Notes: generated from the sequence alone by a model not told the origin. 64,000 nt of DNA from Candidatus Marinacidobacterales bacterium (GCA_965224085.1 CBDCYI010000004.1:288001-352000); one strand, 5' to 3'; positions 14,322-23,694 are shown, counted from the first letter of the stretch. Numbers and translations: made by a program.

Positions 14322-14732
14322 TTATGCAGGCAACGGTTCTTCCCAATCCTCCCAGCTCAATCCGACGATCCTCGAAAACTCGTCCACGTTGCGCGTCACG
14401 AGCGTTAGTTCGTGTGTCACGGCAATCGAAGCGATCATCAAGTCGTTCGCCCCGATGCGTTGCCCAATGCGCTCGAGCTCTGCGCGAATGATGCCGTAGT
14501 TGTTCGTGCAATCGTCATCGAAAGGAATGGCGACGAGTGGGGCGAAAAACGTATGGAGGACGCGAAGGTTTTCCGCGGGCCGCGCGCTTTTGCGTGCGCC
14601 GTAGACGAGCTCGGCCTTCACCACGGAACAGAGCTGTATCTCGGATGGCGGCTTCGATTGGAATCTCTCGATGAGCTCGGTCGATGAGTCATTCAGAATC
14701 TTGATGCACGCGTTTGTGTCCAGAAGATACAT
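14322..14732 (-). CDS. vapC: VapC PIN-domain toxin
   Basis: YLLDTN, AELVYG, IGANDLMIASIA, LVTRN..EF. Confidence 0.93.
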   Translation of the reverse strand: MYLLDTNACIKILNDSSTELIERFQSKPPSEIQLCSVVKAELVYGARKSARPAENLRVLHTFFAPLVAIPFDDDCTNNYGIIRAELERIGQRIGANDLMIASIAVTHELTLVTRNVDEFSRIVGLSWEDWEEPLPA

Positions 14733-14955
14733 CGAGCTCCTCGCGCTCTTCGAGATTCAACGGCTGTGGCCTTACTAGCGGTTCACCTTTGAAGCCTCCG
14801 ACCACCGTCGCGAAATATCCGTCCGGCCAGTCATCGGCCACCTGGCTTCGCACGAGCGCCGCGAGAAAGGCTGAAACACTGAGCCCGCGACGAGCGGCCC
14901 GTCTGCGGACCTCTCGTTCAAGTTCTTCCGGCAGATAGAGATGCAATTGGGCCAT
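14689..14955 (-). CDS. vapB: VapB-like RHH antitoxin
   Basis: MAQLHLYLPEEL..RRAARRGLSVSAF; overlaps the vapC start. Confidence 0.8.
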   Translation of the reverse strand: MAQLHLYLPEELEREVRRRAARRGLSVSAFLAALVRSQVADDWPDGYFATVVGGFKGEPLVRPQPLNLEEREELDVSSGHKRVHQDSE

Positions 14956-14979
14956 AGCAAATATATTCTAGCACATATA

Positions 14980-15258
14980 ACAGGAGGAAAAGAGGCCTTT
15001 GAAGAGATGGAAGGGGGTTTGGTACGCGGGCTGAATCATTGCCAGACCGGCAAGCTCCAGATCTTCAAGTTGCTGGCGGATCGCAAGATGCAGCTCAAGG
15101 AGGATTTCGATCTGAAGCACTTCCACGACCAAATCATCACCCTGGGATCGGTTCCATTGTCCCTCCTCCGGTGGCAAATCACCTGCCTAGACGACGAAAT
15201 GGACAAGTTTTGGAACCCGGTAAGACTCTCCTCCATCTTGGAGCCGGTCTCGAACTGA
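14980..15258 (+). pseudogene. C-terminal relic of a DUF885-family protein
   Basis: LLADRKMQLKEDFDLKHFHDQIITLGSVPLSLLRW is homologous to the C-termini of the genes at 18535 and 31357. Confidence 0.8.
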
Positions 15259-15366
15259 GCTCCGCGTGCGAGCCGTGTTCTTCGCTAGCGCCGCCGTTCG
15301 TCCGTAGACTCTGCCATGATGAAGACCATCGTCGGAGCGGTTCATTGGGACCGTTTGCGAGTACGG

Positions 15367-17106
15367 CTACCTCGCTTCATCCCCGGCAAGCTCTCGAGCC
15401 CGGGTGCGCAGCAGTTCGAGAGAGGGATCGAGCGCGAACGCCGACTCGTACATGGCGGCCGCCTGCTCACCATCTCCCCGGACCTCGAAGATAAGGCCTA
15501 GGTTCGCGTAGGCGGCTGCGAGAGAAGCGTCACGGGCCACCGCCTCCTCCAGCACCGGCTCGGCCTCCAAGTACCGTTGCTGGCGAACGAGCGCCATTCC
15601 CAGATTGACCAGGGCGGGAGCGTAGCTGGGCGCGTCCCGCACCGCTTTTCGAAACTCTTGCTCGGCAGCGGACAAGTCATTACGGGCAAGGAGGATGGTT
15701 CCCAGAAGGTTGTGTGCCTCGGGGTAGGCGGGTGCGATCTGGACCGCTCGCAAAAGAAGCCGTTCCGCCTCGAGGTCCTCACTCCTTTCCAAAAGGAGCG
15801 ACGCGTAGTTGAAATGAGCCTTGGCGCTCGCGGGCGACGTCCGAACGGTGGCGGCGAACAAGGTTTCGTCGCTTTGCCAGTCTCTGTTTCTCAACACCGC
15901 GACCCAGAGATTCGCCACCAGAACAAACACCACCAGTACCAGAGTCGCTGCCCTCCACGGGAGGGCGCGGCTCATGCCTTCTGAAATGGCACATCCGGCA
16001 AGAAGGCAGAGCCCCACCGAGGGGAGGTAGAGCACGCGCTCGGCCATGATCGTCCCGATGGTGAACAACACGTTGGAAACCGGCGCCAGCAAGAGAGAGA
16101 AAGCGATGAGGGCCAGTGCTGCCAAGGGGGCTCGACGCCAAAGCGCCACCACGAGCACGGCGCACGAAGCGGCGATGAGGAGGGCGAGGAGCCGTGGATC
16201 CGTCCAGGACTGAATGAGAGGTATCTGGCGGTAGGAGTAATCCGCCGAAAGAGGATAGGGTACGAGGAAGAGAAGGACGTACTTCGCCGCCACCCACAGC
16301 GTCGTCGCCACCCCCTGGAGGGGAGCGGCTTCCACCAGAGGATTCTCGATGTATCGGGTGACGGCTCCGGAAGCACGGACGCCGCCCACCGCCGCGAAGC
16401 GCAGCAAGGTGTAGCCGGTGAGGGCGAGGCCGAGCGCGACATAGAGGCCGCGCCTCTGGTTCAGAAGATGACCTGGCCGAGAGGAGAAGGATTGCTGTGG
16501 AGCGTTGGCTCTGAGAAGGTCACTCACCACGATAACCGCTAACAAGGCGACGGCGCTTTCCTTGGCGAGAAGGCCGGCCACGAAGAGAAGCGCAATCGTA
16601 AGGGAGCGCCGTAGCGGTAAAGAGGGGCCTTCGAGCGAAAGGCACCACCCGGCCAGCACGAAGAACGCGGACAACAGATCGGCGCGTCCGAAGACGGGAG
16701 TCACCGCTTCGGTGTGGACGGCATGCACGGCGAACAGGGCCGCGCTCGTCACCGTTACCACAGCCGAACAGGAGAGCCGCCAAACGAGAGCCGCCACCAG
16801 GAGGCTGTTGGCGGCGTGAAGGACGATGTTGGTGACATGGTACAGGAAAGGACGGAGTCCGCCGAGGGCGTAGTTCAACGCGAACGAGTAGATGGTGAGC
16901 GGCCGGTACCATTCCACCTGTCCGTGAGTGACCGAGCCCTGACTCAACGAGGGCAAGGGGCTCAACGAGCGCACGAGGTCGTTGCGCACCACCTGGGCGT
17001 AATCGTCGTAAACGAACTCGTTCGAGGTGGTGTTCAAGTAAGGAAGGGTGGCCAGCACCGCGACCCCCGCCGCCATCGCAGCGCCGCGTCGGTTCGGTTT
17101 CGGCAT
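15367..17106 (-). CDS. TMTC-like (DUF1736) GT-C glycosyltransferase with TPRs
   Basis: FVYDD, YRPL, HTEAV..GRADL, LSADY, AERVLYLPS, multiple TM segments, C-terminal TPRs. Confidence 0.85.
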   Translation of the reverse strand: MPKPNRRGAAMAAGVAVLATLPYLNTTSNEFVYDDYAQVVRNDLVRSLSPLPSLSQGSVTHGQVEWYRPLTIYSFALNYALGGLRPFLYHVTNIVLHAANSLLVAALVWRLSCSAVVTVTSAALFAVHAVHTEAVTPVFGRADLLSAFFVLAGWCLSLEGPSLPLRRSLTIALLFVAGLLAKESAVALLAVIVVSDLLRANAPQQSFSSRPGHLLNQRRGLYVALGLALTGYTLLRFAAVGGVRASGAVTRYIENPLVEAAPLQGVATTLWVAAKYVLLFLVPYPLSADYSYRQIPLIQSWTDPRLLALLIAASCAVLVVALWRRAPLAALALIAFSLLLAPVSNVLFTIGTIMAERVLYLPSVGLCLLAGCAISEGMSRALPWRAATLVLVVFVLVANLWVAVLRNRDWQSDETLFAATVRTSPASAKAHFNYASLLLERSEDLEAERLLLRAVQIAPAYPEAHNLLGTILLARNDLSAAEQEFRKAVRDAPSYAPALVNLGMALVRQQRYLEAEPVLEEAVARDASLAAAYANLGLIFEVRGDGEQAAAMYESAFALDPSLELLRTRARELAGDEAR

Positions 17107-17207: not shown

Positions 17208-18521
17208 TTATTGAAGGACCTCGAGGGCCAGCTCGGCGTAGAGACGGGCCTGCTGGGCGAGTGAGTCGATATCGACCCACTCGTCCGGGGCGTGAGAGTT
17301 GCCGCCCCTGGTGACGCCAAACGAGACCCACTTGGACCCGAGATTCCAAATGTCGGGCCGGCCACCGCCGGCGGACATCCTCCACTCGGGCTTCCGACCG
17401 GTGTAGGAGGGAGCGATCTCGAAAATGGCGGCAATCAAAGGGTCTTTTTCGTTCAGCAGCTCCCAGTAGTGGTCGGGAACCTTCTGTGTTCCGATCGTCT
17501 CGATCTCGACGTGAAGGTCCGGGTCCTCCCGGTTCATCTGCTCCATCAGATTCCCCAGCTCCTTGAGGACACGCTGGGGATCCTGATTAGGGAACAAACG
17601 GATATCGATGTCCGCTTCGGCGTGGTCCGGTACCATGTTGACCTCATAGCCGCCGACCACCTTGTTGACTTCGACGAACGGCTTTCCTTCTCCTTCGCTG
17701 GACACGTAGTTGGCGAAGAGAGGGTCCGCCTCCCACCTCATCCAGCGATCGACGTCCAGTACGACGGGAATGATCTTGGCAAGCTTGTGAATGGCGTTCA
17801 CCGGCGCCCTTCCCTCTTCAACGGTGGCACCGGGATGGGCCATGTGTCCCTTCACGATCAGTTTCAGCCAGATGTGACCACCGGCCCGCTTCACGATGTT
17901 GCCGCTGCCGCCCCCGGCCAGATACCAATCGGCCTGGATGAGCTCGGGACGCTTCTCCACCACCCAGGGTAGGCAGAACTCGGTGCCTCCCTCGCCGGGA
18001 ATGAAGAGCAGGATGAGGTCTCCCTTCAGAGCGACTCCGGACTCCTTGAGAACACGTGCGCTCTCGATCATTGCGGCGACCGAGCCTTTGGAGTTCGTCG
18101 CGCCCCGCCCCCAGATGCGGCCGTCCTTAATCTCCGCACCCAGCGGATCGACCGACCAGAGCGATCGTTTCCCGATGTAGACGGTGTTGTAGAGCTGGGT
18201 CATGCCGAGCGCCGGCTTTCCCTCCGAGCCCTTCAAACGGCCGGTCACCGCCGGGAAGTCCGACTCGGCAGGGCGCACCACTTCGAGCTGAAGCCCAATC
18301 TTGCGGATCTCCTCCGCGATAAACTGGGCGATCTCCTCGTGATTGTGGGTCACGTTGCGTTCGTACTCGCTGTTGATGCGGACCATCTTCTGGGTCATCG
18401 CCACGATCCGGTCTCGATCCACCAGATCCATGGGAGAAGACGTTTGCCCGAGGCACGGCAACGAGGCCAGTGCCAGGATCAGCGTCGAGAACGCGAGACT
18501 CATAGGGAAAAGTCTTGGCAT
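17208..18521 (-). CDS. Secreted M20 (ArgE/DapE) fold protein with a degenerate metal site
   Basis: WSVDP..DGRIWGRGA.., VKGHMAH..VNAI, NMVPD..DIR and SHAPDE are present, but the metal-ligand motifs are altered. Signal peptide. Confidence 0.88.
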   Translation of the reverse strand: MPRLFPMSLAFSTLILALASLPCLGQTSSPMDLVDRDRIVAMTQKMVRINSEYERNVTHNHEEIAQFIAEEIRKIGLQLEVVRPAESDFPAVTGRLKGSEGKPALGMTQLYNTVYIGKRSLWSVDPLGAEIKDGRIWGRGATNSKGSVAAMIESARVLKESGVALKGDLILLFIPGEGGTEFCLPWVVEKRPELIQADWYLAGGGSGNIVKRAGGHIWLKLIVKGHMAHPGATVEEGRAPVNAIHKLAKIIPVVLDVDRWMRWEADPLFANYVSSEGEGKPFVEVNKVVGGYEVNMVPDHAEADIDIRLFPNQDPQRVLKELGNLMEQMNREDPDLHVEIETIGTQKVPDHYWELLNEKDPLIAAIFEIAPSYTGRKPEWRMSAGGGRPDIWNLGSKWVSFGVTRGGNSHAPDEWVDIDSLAQQARLYAELALEVLQ

Positions 18522-18534
18522 GGGGCGTCTCCTT

Positions 18535-20328
18535 TTACGGCTCGTTGCCAGGAGGGTCCGGCAGGGGAAGTGACGCCGCCTGCCAGAGTTTTTCCATCTC
18601 GTCGTCGAGGCCGGTCATCTCCCAACGGGAGAGTGCGATCGGAATCGAGCCTAGCGCCAGGAACTGATCGTGGAACTCCCGGAAATCGAACCGGTCGGCC
18701 AACTGCATCCTCCTGTCGGCGAGCAATCGATAGATCTGGGTCAGACCGAGCATGCAGGTGTCCGTTGTACCCCGCTCGATGACCGGATAGGTCTCCTCGA
18801 AAGCCTCCTCCGGCCGAGCGCCCAGGCTGGGTCCCAGATTCGGAGGCAGTCGATCGGTCAACCACTCGAGCGCCTCCTTCACGGTTAGCTGTCCGTCGAG
18901 GAGGCGGATACCCTGGAGCACGCGCAACGACCGCTGGTACATGTTGACGTAGACCTGCTCTCGAGCTCGCGGACCTCGCACGTACGGGAAATCCAGCATG
19001 AGCGGCATCTCTTCGTTGTAGAAGCACCATCCCTGACTGTGCACCGGGTCCCGATGCCCCCGGCGTACCGGGCAGGGATTGCGCCGGTGAAGCTCACGCT
19101 CAAGGTAGTGCCCCGGATAGTACTCGTGCATGTGAAGCACTCCGGGTGCCGTCCGAAAGCCCATGTTCGAATACTGCCACTTCCAGTGGTCCACGGGGTA
19201 GATGATGATCCGCCTCGCGGGCTCCTCCGGAGTTCCTCCCTGCGCGTCTTCTTGACGCTCCGGGAAGTACATCTCGCCAAAGGGGGGCTGAAAGAGGCCC
19301 ACCGACGACTTCACCGGAAGCGCGTAATCCGGCTCGGTGAGAAGGTCCTTGTAGAAGCGCCGGATGCGAAGCGAGGTCTCGTCGTCCCAGGCCAGGTACT
19401 TCTCCGCGGTCTCGGCCGGTCCAATCTGGGGCAGGTAGCGGTTCTTGAACTGCTCGAACTGGAAGAAGGAGAGAGCGCGAGCGCGCTCCATCGCCGCCAT
19501 AGCGAGAAGCTCATCGGCGCCGTGAGGAACGAGCCGCACGCGGCGAAGATGCCACGTATAGGTGTCCTTACCCAGGACGTAGGAGCCGCTCATCTGCGCT
19601 CGGCTCTCCTCCAGCCACTCGCCGAAAGCGGACAGGGCTTTGGCCGCCCGCGCCGCGGCCGGGCCAAGCTCGCTCGCCTCCGGCTCCGGAAAATGAGGCT
19701 TCATCAACTGGACCCAGTCGGCGTAGTCCCGCTCGATGTCCTTGAGACCGCGCGATTGGTTGAAGTCGATGAGGTAGCCGCCGCCGGGATGGCGGAGGGC
19801 CATGTCGGCGAGCTCGGGAACCGCCTCGGTGAGATTCGCGGGCGCCTGGTTCAGAATCGCTTCGGTTTCGGCCAGAGCCTTCAAAATTGCCTGGACACGC
19901 TCTCTCGGATAGGGAACGGTGCCGGGGCGCACGCGCCGGCCGGCAATCAAATGACGGCGCACGTTTCCGATCGCCGTTTGCGTGTAGAAGACAGGGCTCC
20001 GGCTCCAGGGACGAAGAACGTGCAGGCGAAACACTTCCGCATCCATCTGGGAGCGGAGCAGCAGGTAGTCCACCTGGGCGTGAACCGAGAAGCTCCGGAC
20101 GTCGGGCAGCCGAGACAAACGCTCCTGGAACTCCCGGAGCTCCGCGACCTGTCGGGCGGCGCGATCGGCGTAGTCAGCTATGCCGTCGGGTGGCGCTCGC
20201 CATTCCTGAAAATCCCGGGCGAGCTTCAGAAGTTCGGCCGGGTGCTCGAGCTGGGCCGTCTGCCCGCCGAAGAGCACCGTGACCGGAAGCAGCACCAGAA
20301 GCGCCAGTGGGGTAACGGTCTCTCTCAT
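18535..20328 (-). CDS. Secreted DUF885-family protein
   Basis: Signal peptide; HEYYPGH; QGWCFYNEE; FDFREFHDQFLALGSIP. Confidence 0.82.
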   Translation of the reverse strand: MRETVTPLALLVLLPVTVLFGGQTAQLEHPAELLKLARDFQEWRAPPDGIADYADRAARQVAELREFQERLSRLPDVRSFSVHAQVDYLLLRSQMDAEVFRLHVLRPWSRSPVFYTQTAIGNVRRHLIAGRRVRPGTVPYPRERVQAILKALAETEAILNQAPANLTEAVPELADMALRHPGGGYLIDFNQSRGLKDIERDYADWVQLMKPHFPEPEASELGPAAARAAKALSAFGEWLEESRAQMSGSYVLGKDTYTWHLRRVRLVPHGADELLAMAAMERARALSFFQFEQFKNRYLPQIGPAETAEKYLAWDDETSLRIRRFYKDLLTEPDYALPVKSSVGLFQPPFGEMYFPERQEDAQGGTPEEPARRIIIYPVDHWKWQYSNMGFRTAPGVLHMHEYYPGHYLERELHRRNPCPVRRGHRDPVHSQGWCFYNEEMPLMLDFPYVRGPRAREQVYVNMYQRSLRVLQGIRLLDGQLTVKEALEWLTDRLPPNLGPSLGARPEEAFEETYPVIERGTTDTCMLGLTQIYRLLADRRMQLADRFDFREFHDQFLALGSIPIALSRWEMTGLDDEMEKLWQAASLPLPDPPGNEP

Positions 20329-20389
20329 TCTCGGCACCCTCTCTTACCGCTTGGCCAAAGGGAGACAAAGCAAACCGGTCATGAGCGCT

Positions 20390-23300
20390 CTAGAACAGGA
20401 GTCGAACGCCAAACCGCGCCCGGCGCGGCGGAACGATCGCCTCGGGCTCCAGGAAGTTCGTCAGCCCGAACCGTTGCTCCTGGACGTGGGTCACCGCCCC
20501 CGAGTTGAGAACGTTCAGCACGTCGAGGGTGACACCGATACGCACACCCCGGTCGAACTCGAAGAACTTCTCCACTCTCAAATTGAGGAGGTTCTGGAAG
20601 TCGACGCGGTGAGTTCCGCGAGGCTCGACCGCGACGTCGACCCGAGATTCCCGGTACCTGACTCCGTCGGCGTTGTTTTCCGGAAAGTGGATACCGCGCC
20701 GGAACTGGAAGAACGTCGCCCCCGGCAAACGCGAGCCGAGGAGCAGGTTGGCGGGGAACCCCGTTTGCCCGAGATATTGAGCGGCGAGGTTGATTTCGTA
20801 GGGAGCGACCCAAGAGAAGCTCAGCTTGAGGAGGTGCCGCGCATCGAGGGAGAGAGGACCGTCGCGGTTGATCAGATCGTTCGGGTTCCTCACGTTGAGC
20901 GAGAAACTGTCGTTGAAGTGGGTTCCGAGATTCCCGGTGCTGTCGCCCAGCGTGTAAGAGCCGAACAACTGCCAGCCATCGCGAAATCGCCGCCGGGCGA
21001 CGAACTCGACGCCCTTGTACCGCCGCTCGGCCAGATCCGAGTTCGAGCGAAAGCTGCCCGACGCGGTGAAGTCCGGCCTCACGAGGAAGATGTTCATGGG
21101 CTGGTTGTCCACCGGGTTCACCACCGATACCTCATCATACGCCTGGTCAAAGGGCCGGAGCGGATCGGTGGTCGCATACAGATCGCCGGCTTCCTTGTAC
21201 ATGCCGGTAACGCTGAAGGAGAAGTCGGCTCCCACGCCGAACTCGAATCCCACATTGACGGAATCGACGTACGGCTGTTGGAGATTGGGGTCGTGGGTGA
21301 CGGTGCCAGCAAACTCTTCCGGACTGACGACGCTATTGGAGATGAGGCGTCCCTCTTCGCCAGCCACGAAAAACAAGTCGCCATTCATCTGATCGAGAGG
21401 AAGACCCTGGCAGGAAATGGGGTTTCCGGCCGCGTCCCGGCAATCGTTCCAGTCGAATCGGGTCAAACGAGAGCTGTTGGGATTTCCGCTGCCCGCGCCC
21501 CCGATCCTGTCGTGCCAACGGCCGAAACTTCCCTTGACGATGAACTTGCCCTCGCCGGTGACATCCCAGTTGACCCCGATACGCGGAGCGATCGTGTTCC
21601 AGTTGATGATGTCGCGTCGTTCCGGCCAGAGGAAGTTGGGATGGTAGCAGTCTCTCGGGAAGTCCACGGTGTTGCCGTCATAGTCGGGACTGAAACCGCC
21701 CGGCACCACGTCACATCCGCCACGCTGCTCGGGCGTCCAGCCGTTGGAGTGCTCGAACCGGAGTCCCAGATTCAGAGTCACGTCGCCGGGAAGGCTCCAG
21801 CTGTCCTGAGCATAAAGCGCGATGATCCGATGCTCGTCCTGCGTGTCGGTTGGCTGCTGGTAGATACGGATCTGGTCCGGCACCGCGCAGTCGAGTGAAA
21901 AGCAGTCCGAGGCGCTGTCCAGATACTGTCGCATTCCGTCCGGGATCACCCGCCATCGTTGGCTCCAGAACTTCTGATGGTGGAAACCGAATTTGAAGTC
22001 ATGGTCGCCGGCCAAGTCCTTCTTGAAGTAGCTGAAGGCGCTGCGGATATCCCAGTGGTCCCGCCCATCGAAGCGGCCGCGAAGCTGATTCCACGTCCCG
22101 TAGGCGATCCCACTTCCGCGGTCTTCGTAGCCGCGCACTTCCGCGGGATCGTAGGAGCCGAACGGGAACGTGTTGTCCTCGTTGACTTTGAGCCAACCCC
22201 ACTGGGCATCGAAGATCATGCTGTCGCCGATAACAGAGCTCCATTGGGCGCTGTGGGTTTTCGGCTTCCAGAACTGTTTTCGCCAGGCGCGCTCATCGAA
22301 CCGGAACTTGGATCCGGGGTTGGACGGACGCATCCAGCGATCTTGATTGTTATAGGTGTAGCTAAATCGGCTGTTGGGAAGCGGCTGCCAAGTCCCCTTG
22401 ACCAAGAAAAGCTTCTTTCTCTCATGGATGTTGGCCTCGCTACCCAAACGGTCACGGGTTGATAAGGCGGGATAGTTGGCTTGTGCCAACTCGTTGGTGT
22501 TACGGTTGAAGTCGAAGAAGAACCAGAGCTTTTGTTTGATGACCGGGCCACCGATATTGCCTCCGAAGTTCTGGTCGCGAACGATGGCGTTCTGCTCTTG
22601 GGCGAGTCCCGAGGTGTTATTTGAAGAGACCCCCTCATCGACGATGTAGTAGTAGGTGCTCCCCGCGAAGTCGTCCCCGCCCGACTTGGTGATGAAGGTG
22701 AAAACGCCGCCGCTCGCCATGCCGTACTCCGCGGTAACGCCACTCGTCGACGCCTGCGTCAGCTCCAGCGCCTCGATAGAAAACTCGGTGCCGGAGTAGC
22801 CCGAGGGGTGCTTGGTGCTTTGACCGTCGATTATGTAGTCGTTGTCACGAACGCTGCTCCCGTGCACCGCCTGTGTGAGGGAGTAGGTATAGCGGCTCCC
22901 AGTGGTGACGCCGGGCAAGGTAGTGAGGACATCGGCGTAAGAGCGCTCGATGGGGACGTCCCTGATGAGGTCCTGATCGACAGTGTACGTTGTCACCGAG
23001 CTGCGCACATCGATCACGGGCGTCTCGCTGGTCACCGTCACAGTCTCTTCCACCGTCGTGATCGTGAGGGTTATGGGTACAGCGAATGAAACACCCGAGT
23101 CCATCGTGATCCGCTCCACCGTCAATGTCTGGAACCCCGACAAGCTCGCCTGGACCGCGTACGTGCCCGGTAGTAATCTAGGTACTCTCCACTGGCCGCG
23201 GTCATCGGTCACCGCTGTCCTCGAACCGCCGATGAGTTGAGGGCTGCTGACCGCAAGGGTCACACCAGGCAACACGCCCCCAGTAGAATCTTTCACCGTT

Positions 23301-23428
23301 CCGTAGAGCTCCGCCGTAGTTTCTTGAGCCCCGGCAGTTATCGCGTGGCACATGAATGCCAGAACCGCGGCTGCAGCCACGCCGGTACGGGGACTCCACC
23401 CTGCGGAACGAGTGTTCTCGAACACCAT
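20390..23428 (-). CDS. TonB-dependent receptor with carboxypeptidase-regulatory-like N-domain
   Basis: GTVKDSTGGVLPGVT, AEYG..GG....ITKSG, TLNLGLRFE, NVLN, C-terminal F. RBS AGGGAGGT precedes ATG 23428. Confidence 0.93.
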   Translation of the reverse strand: MVFENTRSAGWSPRTGVAAAAVLAFMCHAITAGAQETTAELYGTVKDSTGGVLPGVTLAVSSPQLIGGSRTAVTDDRGQWRVPRLLPGTYAVQASLSGFQTLTVERITMDSGVSFAVPITLTITTVEETVTVTSETPVIDVRSSVTTYTVDQDLIRDVPIERSYADVLTTLPGVTTGSRYTYSLTQAVHGSSVRDNDYIIDGQSTKHPSGYSGTEFSIEALELTQASTSGVTAEYGMASGGVFTFITKSGGDDFAGSTYYYIVDEGVSSNNTSGLAQEQNAIVRDQNFGGNIGGPVIKQKLWFFFDFNRNTNELAQANYPALSTRDRLGSEANIHERKKLFLVKGTWQPLPNSRFSYTYNNQDRWMRPSNPGSKFRFDERAWRKQFWKPKTHSAQWSSVIGDSMIFDAQWGWLKVNEDNTFPFGSYDPAEVRGYEDRGSGIAYGTWNQLRGRFDGRDHWDIRSAFSYFKKDLAGDHDFKFGFHHQKFWSQRWRVIPDGMRQYLDSASDCFSLDCAVPDQIRIYQQPTDTQDEHRIIALYAQDSWSLPGDVTLNLGLRFEHSNGWTPEQRGGCDVVPGGFSPDYDGNTVDFPRDCYHPNFLWPERRDIINWNTIAPRIGVNWDVTGEGKFIVKGSFGRWHDRIGGAGSGNPNSSRLTRFDWNDCRDAAGNPISCQGLPLDQMNGDLFFVAGEEGRLISNSVVSPEEFAGTVTHDPNLQQPYVDSVNVGFEFGVGADFSFSVTGMYKEAGDLYATTDPLRPFDQAYDEVSVVNPVDNQPMNIFLVRPDFTASGSFRSNSDLAERRYKGVEFVARRRFRDGWQLFGSYTLGDSTGNLGTHFNDSFSLNVRNPNDLINRDGPLSLDARHLLKLSFSWVAPYEINLAAQYLGQTGFPANLLLGSRLPGATFFQFRRGIHFPENNADGVRYRESRVDVAVEPRGTHRVDFQNLLNLRVEKFFEFDRGVRIGVTLDVLNVLNSGAVTHVQEQRFGLTNFLEPEAIVPPRRARFGVRLLF

Positions 23429-23506
23429 AAGTACCTCCCTCTTAAACCCCACCGAAACCCGGCGAAGTAGACTAAGACAATGAATTAAAACTCCTGGGCA
23501 AGCACA

Positions 23507-23522
23507 TGCAAGTTGTATTCCA
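23507..23522 (-). promoter_or_regulatory. Putative sigma54 (-24/-12) promoter
   Basis: TGGAAT-ACAAC-TTGCA (GG-N10-GC) about 80 nt upstream of the receptor start, with AT-rich DNA further upstream. Confidence 0.5.
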
Positions 23523-23694
23523 CTGCCAGCCACGAAAAATAACACAAAAGTCCATAGAAATAAACGTGTTAGATGGTCGTACCCCTGCCCGATACCCTTT
23601 CGTGTTCAAAAATTTGGATTTCATCCGACCGCCCAGACGGTAAGTCCGGACCCTCGATCAGATTAATCTTCTATCTGAGAATAGCTTGGAGGGA

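Follow-up and report, generated by a model that had tools for sequence, protein, structure and literature searches.

We analysed a stretch of 64,000 nucleotides from a Candidatus Marinacidobacterales bacterium (GCA_965224085.1 CBDCYI010000004.1:288001-352000), hereafter the window, in which a minus-strand open reading frame (ORF) encodes a protein with the fold of peptidase family M20. The enzymes of this family include DapE, ArgE, carboxypeptidase G2, carnosinases and aminoacylases, and a His, an Asn and an Arg of the lid domain complete their active site. The M20-like gene lies next to a gene for a DUF885 protein and behind one for a TonB-dependent receptor (Table 1), and the evidence set out below makes it highly probable that the canonical metal site of the family is gone from its product and that the gene is under selection.

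Table 1. Features of the M20-like locus in the window. Five-letter signatures give the residues at positions 110/143/178/204/410 of the M20-like protein.
Feature	Position	Strand	Remarks
TMTC_DUF1736/tetratricopeptide-repeat (TPR) membrane protein	15367..17106	minus	downstream; same position in 5/5 loci of clade A (the window subclade)
M20-fold ORF, 437 aa plus stop (P0001)	17208..18521	minus	ligand-poor LNGGH member of the YN/GEG family
Signal-peptide-like N-terminus, residues 1-25 (MPRLF..ASLPCLG)	18447..18521	minus	kept in orthologues
Catalytic domain part 1, residues 31-214	17880..18431	minus	from HMMER and hhalign alignments; also holds Y111
L110	18192-18194	minus	
N112	18186-18188	minus	
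N143	18093-18095	minus	
E177	17991-17993	minus	
G178	17988-17990	minus	
F182	17976-17978	minus	
G204	17910-17912	minus	
Dimerisation (lid) domain, residues 215-333	17523..17879	minus	Pfam M20_dimer
H229	17835-17837	minus	conserved lid residue
N242	17796-17798	minus	conserved lid residue
R308	17598-17600	minus	conserved lid residue
Catalytic domain part 2, residues 334-437	17211..17522	minus	GGGRPD loop (R388, D390), H410, E414
H410	17292-17294	minus	sole remaining metal ligand
Shine-Dalgarno site AAGGAG	18529..18534	minus	7 nt 5' of the ATG, within a 13-nt gap
DUF885 gene, 600 aa	18535..20337	minus	directly upstream; signal-peptide-like N-terminus; stop TAA 18535-18537
TonB-dependent receptor-like outer-membrane barrel with CarboxypepD_reg domain	20390..23545	minus	upstream

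Fold and metal-ligand positions

Membership of family M20 at the level of fold was evident from both sequence profiles and structure prediction. Pfam matched Peptidase_M20 (PF01546) at residues 115-433 (E 1.7e-21; 77.5 bits against a cut-off of 24.6) and M20_dimer (PF07687) at residues 215-333 (E 3.1e-14; 53.3 bits against 21). HMMER gave DapE enzymes as the nearest solved relatives (7uoi, E 4.8e-19), and 18 different PDB sequences passed E <= 0.001. An AlphaFold2 model computed from a 103-sequence alignment (mean predicted local distance difference test score, pLDDT, 93.5; predicted template modelling score 0.90) was compared with solved structures by Foldseek, the comparison with DapE and ArgE that the original prediction had proposed as a check, and again DapE came out on top (7uoi, E 3.0e-29). 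The template modelling (TM) score, normalised by target, was 0.85 for the product-bound DapE 5vo3, with a root mean square deviation (rmsd) of 3.3, and the zinc-bound entry 3ic1 gave a TM score of 0.66 and an rmsd of 7.2. A search of the ESM Atlas with the M20-like protein returned generic M20 clusters only.

The lid domain, described in the original prediction as well preserved, is indeed so: in addition to the M20_dimer match, the characteristic His, Asn and Arg are present as H229, N242 and R308, conserved to 90% or more across the 103 sequences aligned (A2) and kept in both clades of the family described below.

The N-terminus has a basic n-region and a hydrophobic core at residues 8-22, and its first ~25 residues look like a Sec signal peptide. 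Residues 1-30 were modelled with pLDDT values of 55-70, and homology to mature M20 proteins begins at about residue 31. A lipoprotein signal was considered for the window copy and rejected, given that S-L-P precedes Cys23 and does not fit the lipobox consensus.

We take H67, D100, E134, E135, E163 and H349 of DapE to be the metal-site residues, with the roles named here for each aligned position. Equivalences were drawn from ungapped HMMER alignments to the DapE chains 7uoi, 4h2k and 5vo3 and, as a second mapping, from an hhalign profile-profile comparison of 43 family members (alignment A1) with 46 canonical M20 sequences (A4), which aligned with probability 100 and E 5.1e-84; the two gave the same result. 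The first ligand His falls on L110, the Asp of HxD on N112, the bridging Asp on N143, the second Glu of DEE, a ligand, on G178, and the Glu of GEP on G204, while the first Glu of DEE, the general base, is kept as E177 and the C-terminal His as H410. The motifs concerned are QLYNTV (109-114), GRGATNSKG (138-146), PGEGG (175-179), AGGGSG (202-207) and NSHAPDE (408-414). Every motif quoted in the original prediction, which named no strand, is therefore present in the ORF, and its claim that four of five ligands are lost, with the general-base Glu and the C-terminal His kept, agrees with both mappings. A passage of PMC11511702 describes the M20 family as having two co-catalytic zinc ions with conserved binding sites; the M20-like protein, with one of five ligand positions filled, falls outside the functional definition of the family. 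It does show the loss of residues essential for family chemistry that marks a pseudoenzyme, with four of five ligands substituted and the substitutions fixed in 43 rows of the tree described below.

One MAFFT alignment disagreed, placing E177 on the second Glu, in which case two of the five positions would be filled and the base lost. The dinuclear site would still not be intact, and neither the HMMER nor the hhalign alignments give any support to the shift. This shifted Glu column is one of two observations in favour of the proposal that the gene is an ordinary DapE or ArgE mis-read through alignment error, or else a decaying pseudogene; the other is that a paralogue in the same genome (C9:404166-405451) carries two frame changes. 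The proposal is scarcely credible, given that the two methods agree on the substitutions and that the NCBIfam equivalog scores lie far under their cut-offs: 62.8 against 361.8 for TIGR01246, 73.5 against 284 for NF009557 and 78.1 against 297.7 for TIGR01892. A true DapE or ArgE was rejected on these scores. The best NCBIfam model, TIGR01910 (ArgE/DapE deacylase), likewise scored 157.7 against a cut-off of 217.6. Relatives are named succinyl-diaminopimelate desuccinylase or acetylornithine deacetylase in the source records, and for the ligand-poor clade these names are almost certainly wrong.

The extent of the loss can be gauged from 130 non-family M20 proteins of more than 300 aa, of which 107 fill all five ligand positions, 19 four, two three and two two, with none at one, as read from the columns of a MAFFT alignment; by this count the loss in the M20-like protein is in excess of chance. 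One of the non-family proteins, P0146 (signature HNEMES), has no C-terminal His and carries Asn in place of the bridging Asp, so ligand loss may have occurred independently elsewhere in M20.

Family relationships, order of ligand loss and constraint

A word-indexed search recovered 57 clusters at 90% identity (P0002-P0058), 43-95% identical to the M20-like protein at E <= 1.1e-56, followed by a clear gap, canonical M20 proteins coming next at 27-31% identity. Every family member that covers the region has the motifs xYNTV and GEG, and the same residues are shared by the orthologues from three further genomes or contigs as well as by more distant relatives. Collecting homologues with the YNTV/NSKG signature, as the original prediction had suggested, thus yielded a conserved family, to which we refer as the YN/GEG family. 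An exhaustive phmmer search over 1.84 billion representatives added a shorter group (~405-417 aa; 34-36% identical) that has no N-terminal extension and shares the motifs HY[NSH]T and GEG.

In a tree of 90 rows (IQ-TREE quick search, LG+G4, support from the Shimodaira-Hasegawa-like approximate likelihood ratio test, SH-aLRT) the GEG family formed a single clade with support of 97, with cytosolic and Bathyarchaeota forms basal. The exported group comprises 67 rows, divided into two ligand-rich clades, with the signatures HDGEH and HDGDH, and one ligand-poor clade of 43 rows with support of 100, in which the substitutions are fixed; they are not, therefore, a peculiarity of one genome.

The tree shows that the metal site of the family was dismantled stepwise and that the M20-like protein is the extreme end-member of the process. 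The change of the HxD Asp to Asn and that of the second Glu to Gly are ancestral to a far wider family, among whose members are cytosolic and archaeal proteins with the other ligands still in place. The next losses were those of the bridging Asp (to Asn), of a family-specific His182 (to Phe) and of the third carboxylate (to Gly, Ser or Cys), and the first His was lost last and repeatedly. The minimum numbers of changes are one loss of the acid at 204, two changes of D143 and at least three losses of H110, and repeated loss of the last of these ligands is what would be expected once no metal need be held. The original prediction had regarded the loss as focused, and as selected rather than decaying. 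Its second part stands, random decay being contradicted by the conservation and substitution rates given below; its first does not hold for a single event, since two of the changes are ancestral.

Taken over the whole protein, conservation in the ligand-poor clade matches that in the ligand-rich ones (mean top-residue fraction 0.711 versus 0.703), and constraint is not relaxed. At 55 positions an identical residue is at least 95% conserved in both clades, and these include Y111, N112, E177, H229, N242, R308, G386, G387, R388, P389, D390, W392, H410 and E414. The only fixed differences between the clades are D143N and H182F, and H110 is among the relaxed positions. None of the 43 ligand-poor rows departs from E177 or H410, and Y111 and N112 are invariant throughout the family. 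Given its invariance in the exported ligand-rich clades, His182 may stand in there for the lost second Glu as a ligand.

The orthologues in two related genomes, G003 and G012, are 94.5-95.7% identical, and the three orthologues are of equal length. Over the three orthologue pairs the ratio of nonsynonymous to synonymous substitution rates (dN/dS) was 0.26-0.47 for the M20-like gene and 0.26-0.37 for the DUF885 gene, at low synonymous rates (dS) of 0.05-0.13, those for the M20-like gene being 0.05-0.10. A pseudogene or an assembly artefact was rejected in view of the full-length, open 437-aa frame, the orthologues, the Shine-Dalgarno site and the RNA-library contigs described below; decay is further at odds with the dN/dS values, all below 0.5, and with the retention of residues across relatives 43-95% identical.

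These data also bear on whether the protein is still an enzyme, in which E177, H410, Y111, N112, N143/S144, R388 and H229 would catalyse amide or ester hydrolysis or some other reaction, with either no dinuclear centre at all or a single metal bound weakly by E177, H410 and N143. The invariance of E177, H410, Y111 and N112 and the unrelaxed constraint are in keeping with such activity, as is the fact that N143 and F182 are fixed rather than variable replacements, which suggests retuning. Some ligand-poor subclades have moreover gained His145 (in the motif NSHA) or a Cys-Cys pair at 204-205. The window subclade, however, shows no gain of His, Asp, Glu or Cys in or next to the ligand positions; four of the five ligands are gone, the tree requires at least three separate losses of the first His, as if no metal were held, and a limited literature search found no metal-independent M20 enzyme. 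On balance we consider a retained catalytic function somewhat unlikely.

The subclade with the Cys-Cys pair (WYLMGCCGP) combines it with His145 and Leu110 (P0015, P0017, P0036, P0043 and P0051; contigs L110, at 14793-16148, and L111), and might, once the original site was lost, have built another for a metal or for redox chemistry.

Linked genes, expression and a proposed role

The M20-like gene is tightly linked to the DUF885 gene. The order receptor, DUF885, M20-like, TMTC was found in all five clade-A loci, four of which are ~95% identical and one 66%. By tblastn, a DUF885 gene lies directly 5' of the M20-like gene in 13 of 47 regions, a count in which the 13 include several close relatives and many of the contigs are too short to judge; eight of the 13 are low-GC metagenome contigs with the ligand-rich HDGEH type. 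In four of these eight, the distant contigs L126, L127, L133 and L144, the start codon of the M20-like gene overlaps the end of the DUF885 ORF.

The DUF885 protein has an HExxPGH-type motif in which, in its own numbering, H404, H410 and E442 are invariant and E405 nearly so, and the H..PGH...E set is invariant in the DUF885 copies that adjoin M20-like genes. A passage of PMC12572635 assigns DUF885 to the zinc-peptidase clan Peptidase_MA, and we regard the protein as a putative zinc peptidase of clan MA. A limited literature search, judged by titles, found no functional study of DUF885. Complex prediction for DUF885 residues 25-600 (alignment A3) with M20-like residues 30-437 (A1), run without controls, gave a score of 0.00 in both runs, which counts neither for nor against binding.

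In 11 regions the M20-like gene adjoins a gene of the mandelate-racemase type (MR_MLE) of the enolase superfamily, often together with TAXI-type tripartite ATP-independent periplasmic (TRAP) transporter genes, and the neighbouring enolase genes resemble acid-sugar dehydratases. Large Sortilin/BNR-repeat proteins recur near M20-like genes as well. Equivalog models of NCBIfam, consulted to name a substrate from the neighbours, were all below cut-off, bar a TAXI subfamily model and two marginal dapA scores.

Sequence from the stretch, in whole or in part, was present in 20 sequencing runs, six of which are on record as RNA. In all four of the RNA-library runs examined, contigs cover the DUF885 and M20-like genes, with one contig per run spanning the junction; the libraries are labelled sponge metagenome, seawater metagenome and, in one case, a coded organism. 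Expression of the M20-like gene has moderate support from these contigs.

The distribution of the family is patchy, and it is multi-copy where present. Among 41 genomes (that of the window, G000, and 40 relatives) family-level matches were found in four, G000, G003, G004 and G012, with up to six copies each: six in G003, three in G012 and, in G000 (6.87 Mb, 12 contigs), four copies of three types. Three further genomes, G019, G025 and G033, were among the seven with matches at E <= 1e-40 and were rejected as carriers at only ~1e-41 to 1e-42. In a phylum-wide sample none of 400 other genomes had a match at E <= 1e-60, which is weak evidence given that scoring was limited to four candidates per genome. 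Outside these genomes, family members are present in a Vicinamibacterales metagenome-assembled genome (MAG), in a record named Planctomycetes bacterium and in a Bathyarchaeota MAG, the last with a basal form lacking the N-terminal extension. Among the best 80 loci of a single-protein scan of genome contigs only two, L001 and L002, belonged to the family, the others being canonical M20 proteins at 22-33% identity.

This coexistence of types raises the possibility that the M20-like protein is an obligate heterodimer partner of a ligand-rich paralogue, whose active site would be completed by the lid residues H229, N242 and R308, much as inactive and active subunits pair in other families of metallopeptidases. 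Wherever the family occurs in a genome or long contig, several subclades are found together, as in the genome of the window itself; a 26.9-kb metagenome contig (L110 and L134) has four types; ligand-poor and ligand-rich genes are adjacent in L110 and L136; and the lid residues are invariant. The catalytic pocket of the ligand-poor proteins is, however, as conserved as the lid, which would be needless in a pure lid donor, and the window subclade adjoins DUF885 and not a paralogue. We therefore regard obligate pairing as distinctly improbable.

The ligand-rich members of the YN/GEG family, such as that at C11:135857-137110 in the same genome, are among the closest known proteins for comparison. 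They are 43-50% identical to the M20-like protein, share its invariant pocket and have the same kinds of neighbour (DUF885, MR_MLE, TAXI-TRAP and Sortilin/BNR). They differ in keeping His110, Asp143, an acid at 204 and His182, where the protein of the window has Leu, Asn, Gly and Phe, and because those residues are kept they are plausible single-metal or modified two-metal hydrolases. Compared with DapE (7uoi, 5vo3, 3ic1), the M20-like protein has the same two-domain fold, general-base Glu, C-terminal His and lid His, Asn and Arg, and is set apart by its four substituted ligands, its export signal-like N-terminus and a family-specific set of invariant residues (Y111, N112, W218, W260, R388, P389, D390 and W392).

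Our tentative preference, held at a little under even likelihood, is that the protein would serve in non-catalytic ligand binding, as a metal-free derivative of M20. It would be an exported two-domain protein of ArgE/DapE type in which the co-catalytic metal centre has been dismantled, leaving H410 as the only ligand. We infer that no co-catalytic metals are held and therefore that the family chemistry, metal-dependent amide hydrolysis, would be impossible and is no longer performed. The two domains would still close around a small, probably acidic, ligand, and since pocket and lid are as strongly conserved as those of the ligand-rich paralogues, the favoured role is to bind a similar ligand without hydrolysing it. 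The protein may then serve in the periplasm to bind this ligand or hand it on, and would share its transcript with the putative zinc peptidase of the DUF885 family, behind the TonB-dependent receptor, in what would be a nutrient-scavenging locus, associated also with acid-sugar-dehydratase-like and TAXI-TRAP genes.

Several points weigh against this proposal. An active enzyme, too, would be expected to keep the general-base Glu and H410 without exception. The tree comes from a quick search with SH-aLRT support only and has a polytomy inside the ligand-poor clade, and the dN/dS values rest on very low divergence. The suggestion that His182 is a replacement ligand rests on conservation alone, the acid-sugar context comes from neighbours scoring below curated cut-offs, and the RNA-library contigs may contain DNA and do not prove a single transcript.

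There are parallels, in principle, in other families. The abstract of PMC5053510 describes an inactive M23B protein, Csd2, that pairs with Csd1, and pseudopeptidases in other metallopeptidase families are reviewed in PMC11266112, where 'M20' occurs only within reference digital object identifiers. As in pseudopeptidases of the Csd2 type, a metallopeptidase fold would be kept, its ligands lost, and a presumably non-catalytic role taken up beside an active enzyme; unlike Csd2, the M20-like protein is of a different fold and family. A limited literature search found no description of an M20 pseudoenzyme or of a conserved M20 lineage without a metal site.

A broader and more doubtful proposal, which we consider unlikely, is that the exported YN/GEG branch as a whole is an undescribed class in which a dinuclear zinc amidohydrolase was turned stepwise into a metal-free clamp, its conserved pocket put to a new function. 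Such a clamp might support metal-independent catalysis on Glu177, His410 and Tyr111, or might be a periplasmic ligand receptor, a partner of DUF885 peptidases and the TonB-dependent receptor in loci by which marine and sponge-associated bacteria scavenge nutrients. If this were true, the natural intermediates HDGDH, HNGGH, HNGSH, LNGCH and LNGGH would trace an evolutionary path by which a metalloenzyme sheds its metal.

The family offers a graded natural series, from four filled ligand positions to one in an otherwise invariant pocket and often with several types in the same genome, so that comparison of paralogues makes function after metal loss directly testable. For the DUF885 proteins encoded next to it, too, the M20-like family provides the first concrete clue to function.

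Further observations on paralogues and flanking genes

Two of the paralogues in the genome of the window have features of their own. The ligand-rich copy with two frame changes (C9:404166-405451; L092, 9167-10452; HDGDH) runs through three successive frames and is flanked by a TRAP DctM gene on one side and an MR_MLE gene on the other. A nearly identical metagenome contig, L125 (8729-9955), holds an uninterrupted frame of 460 aa; the copy in the genome of the window is either a recent pseudogene or an assembly error. The other is a ligand-poor paralogue of 491 aa (L090, 9196-10668; G000:C9:782246-783607) with the signature HNGGH, the motif NSHA and a lipobox-like N-terminus (LLSGC). Its original context is disrupted, because transposase and integrase genes (DDE_Tnp_IS240, DDE_Tnp_1, rve and DUF772) and a TonB-receptor fragment surround the gene.

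In archaeal contigs (L001, 1658-9871, from the Bathyarchaeota MAG; L138; L141) two basal family members without the N-terminal extension, HDGEH and HDGDH, lie ~1.3 kb apart; some kb upstream of them, L001 and L141 have another M20 gene that is less closely related. Given these pairs, the pairing of paralogues predates the export of the family.

The family DUF885 is strongly expanded in G000, with 25 profile matches in ~20 genes, among them three tandem copies upstream of the M20-like gene on C9 (e.g. C9:397300-401818) and a cluster on C5 (C5:2018353-2032269).

The true start of the TonB-dependent receptor in the window is probably inside the annotated ORF, because its orthologues are 1011-1012 aa. 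Among three genomes (L107, 12221-15256; L108, 12029-15061) the receptor gene had a dN/dS of 0.79-1.44, compared with 0.26-0.47 for the DUF885 and M20-like genes; these values for the receptor are noisy at a dS of 0.03-0.05, yet could reflect diversifying or relaxed selection. The block of receptor, DUF885 and M20-like genes (17208-23545) is 91-96% identical at the protein level to those of L107 (G003) and L108 (G012), with dS of 0.03-0.13, in a comparison that spans genomes assigned to two genera of one family. A block so nearly identical across genera suggests either that the locus was transferred recently or that the genera are very finely divided.

Finally, beyond the TMTC gene, a 105-aa ORF at 14941-15258 on the plus strand aligns with no more than the final 44 positions of the DUF885 profile (E 1.5e-08) and is a C-terminal remnant. 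It adjoins a PIN-domain gene and a small overlapping ORF (14322-14732 and 14689-14955, both on the minus strand), which may form a toxin-antitoxin pair. At the same spot upstream of the TMTC gene G012 has a full-length DUF885 gene of 631 aa (L108, 2993-4885), and for this reason the remnant in the window looks truncated by insertion.

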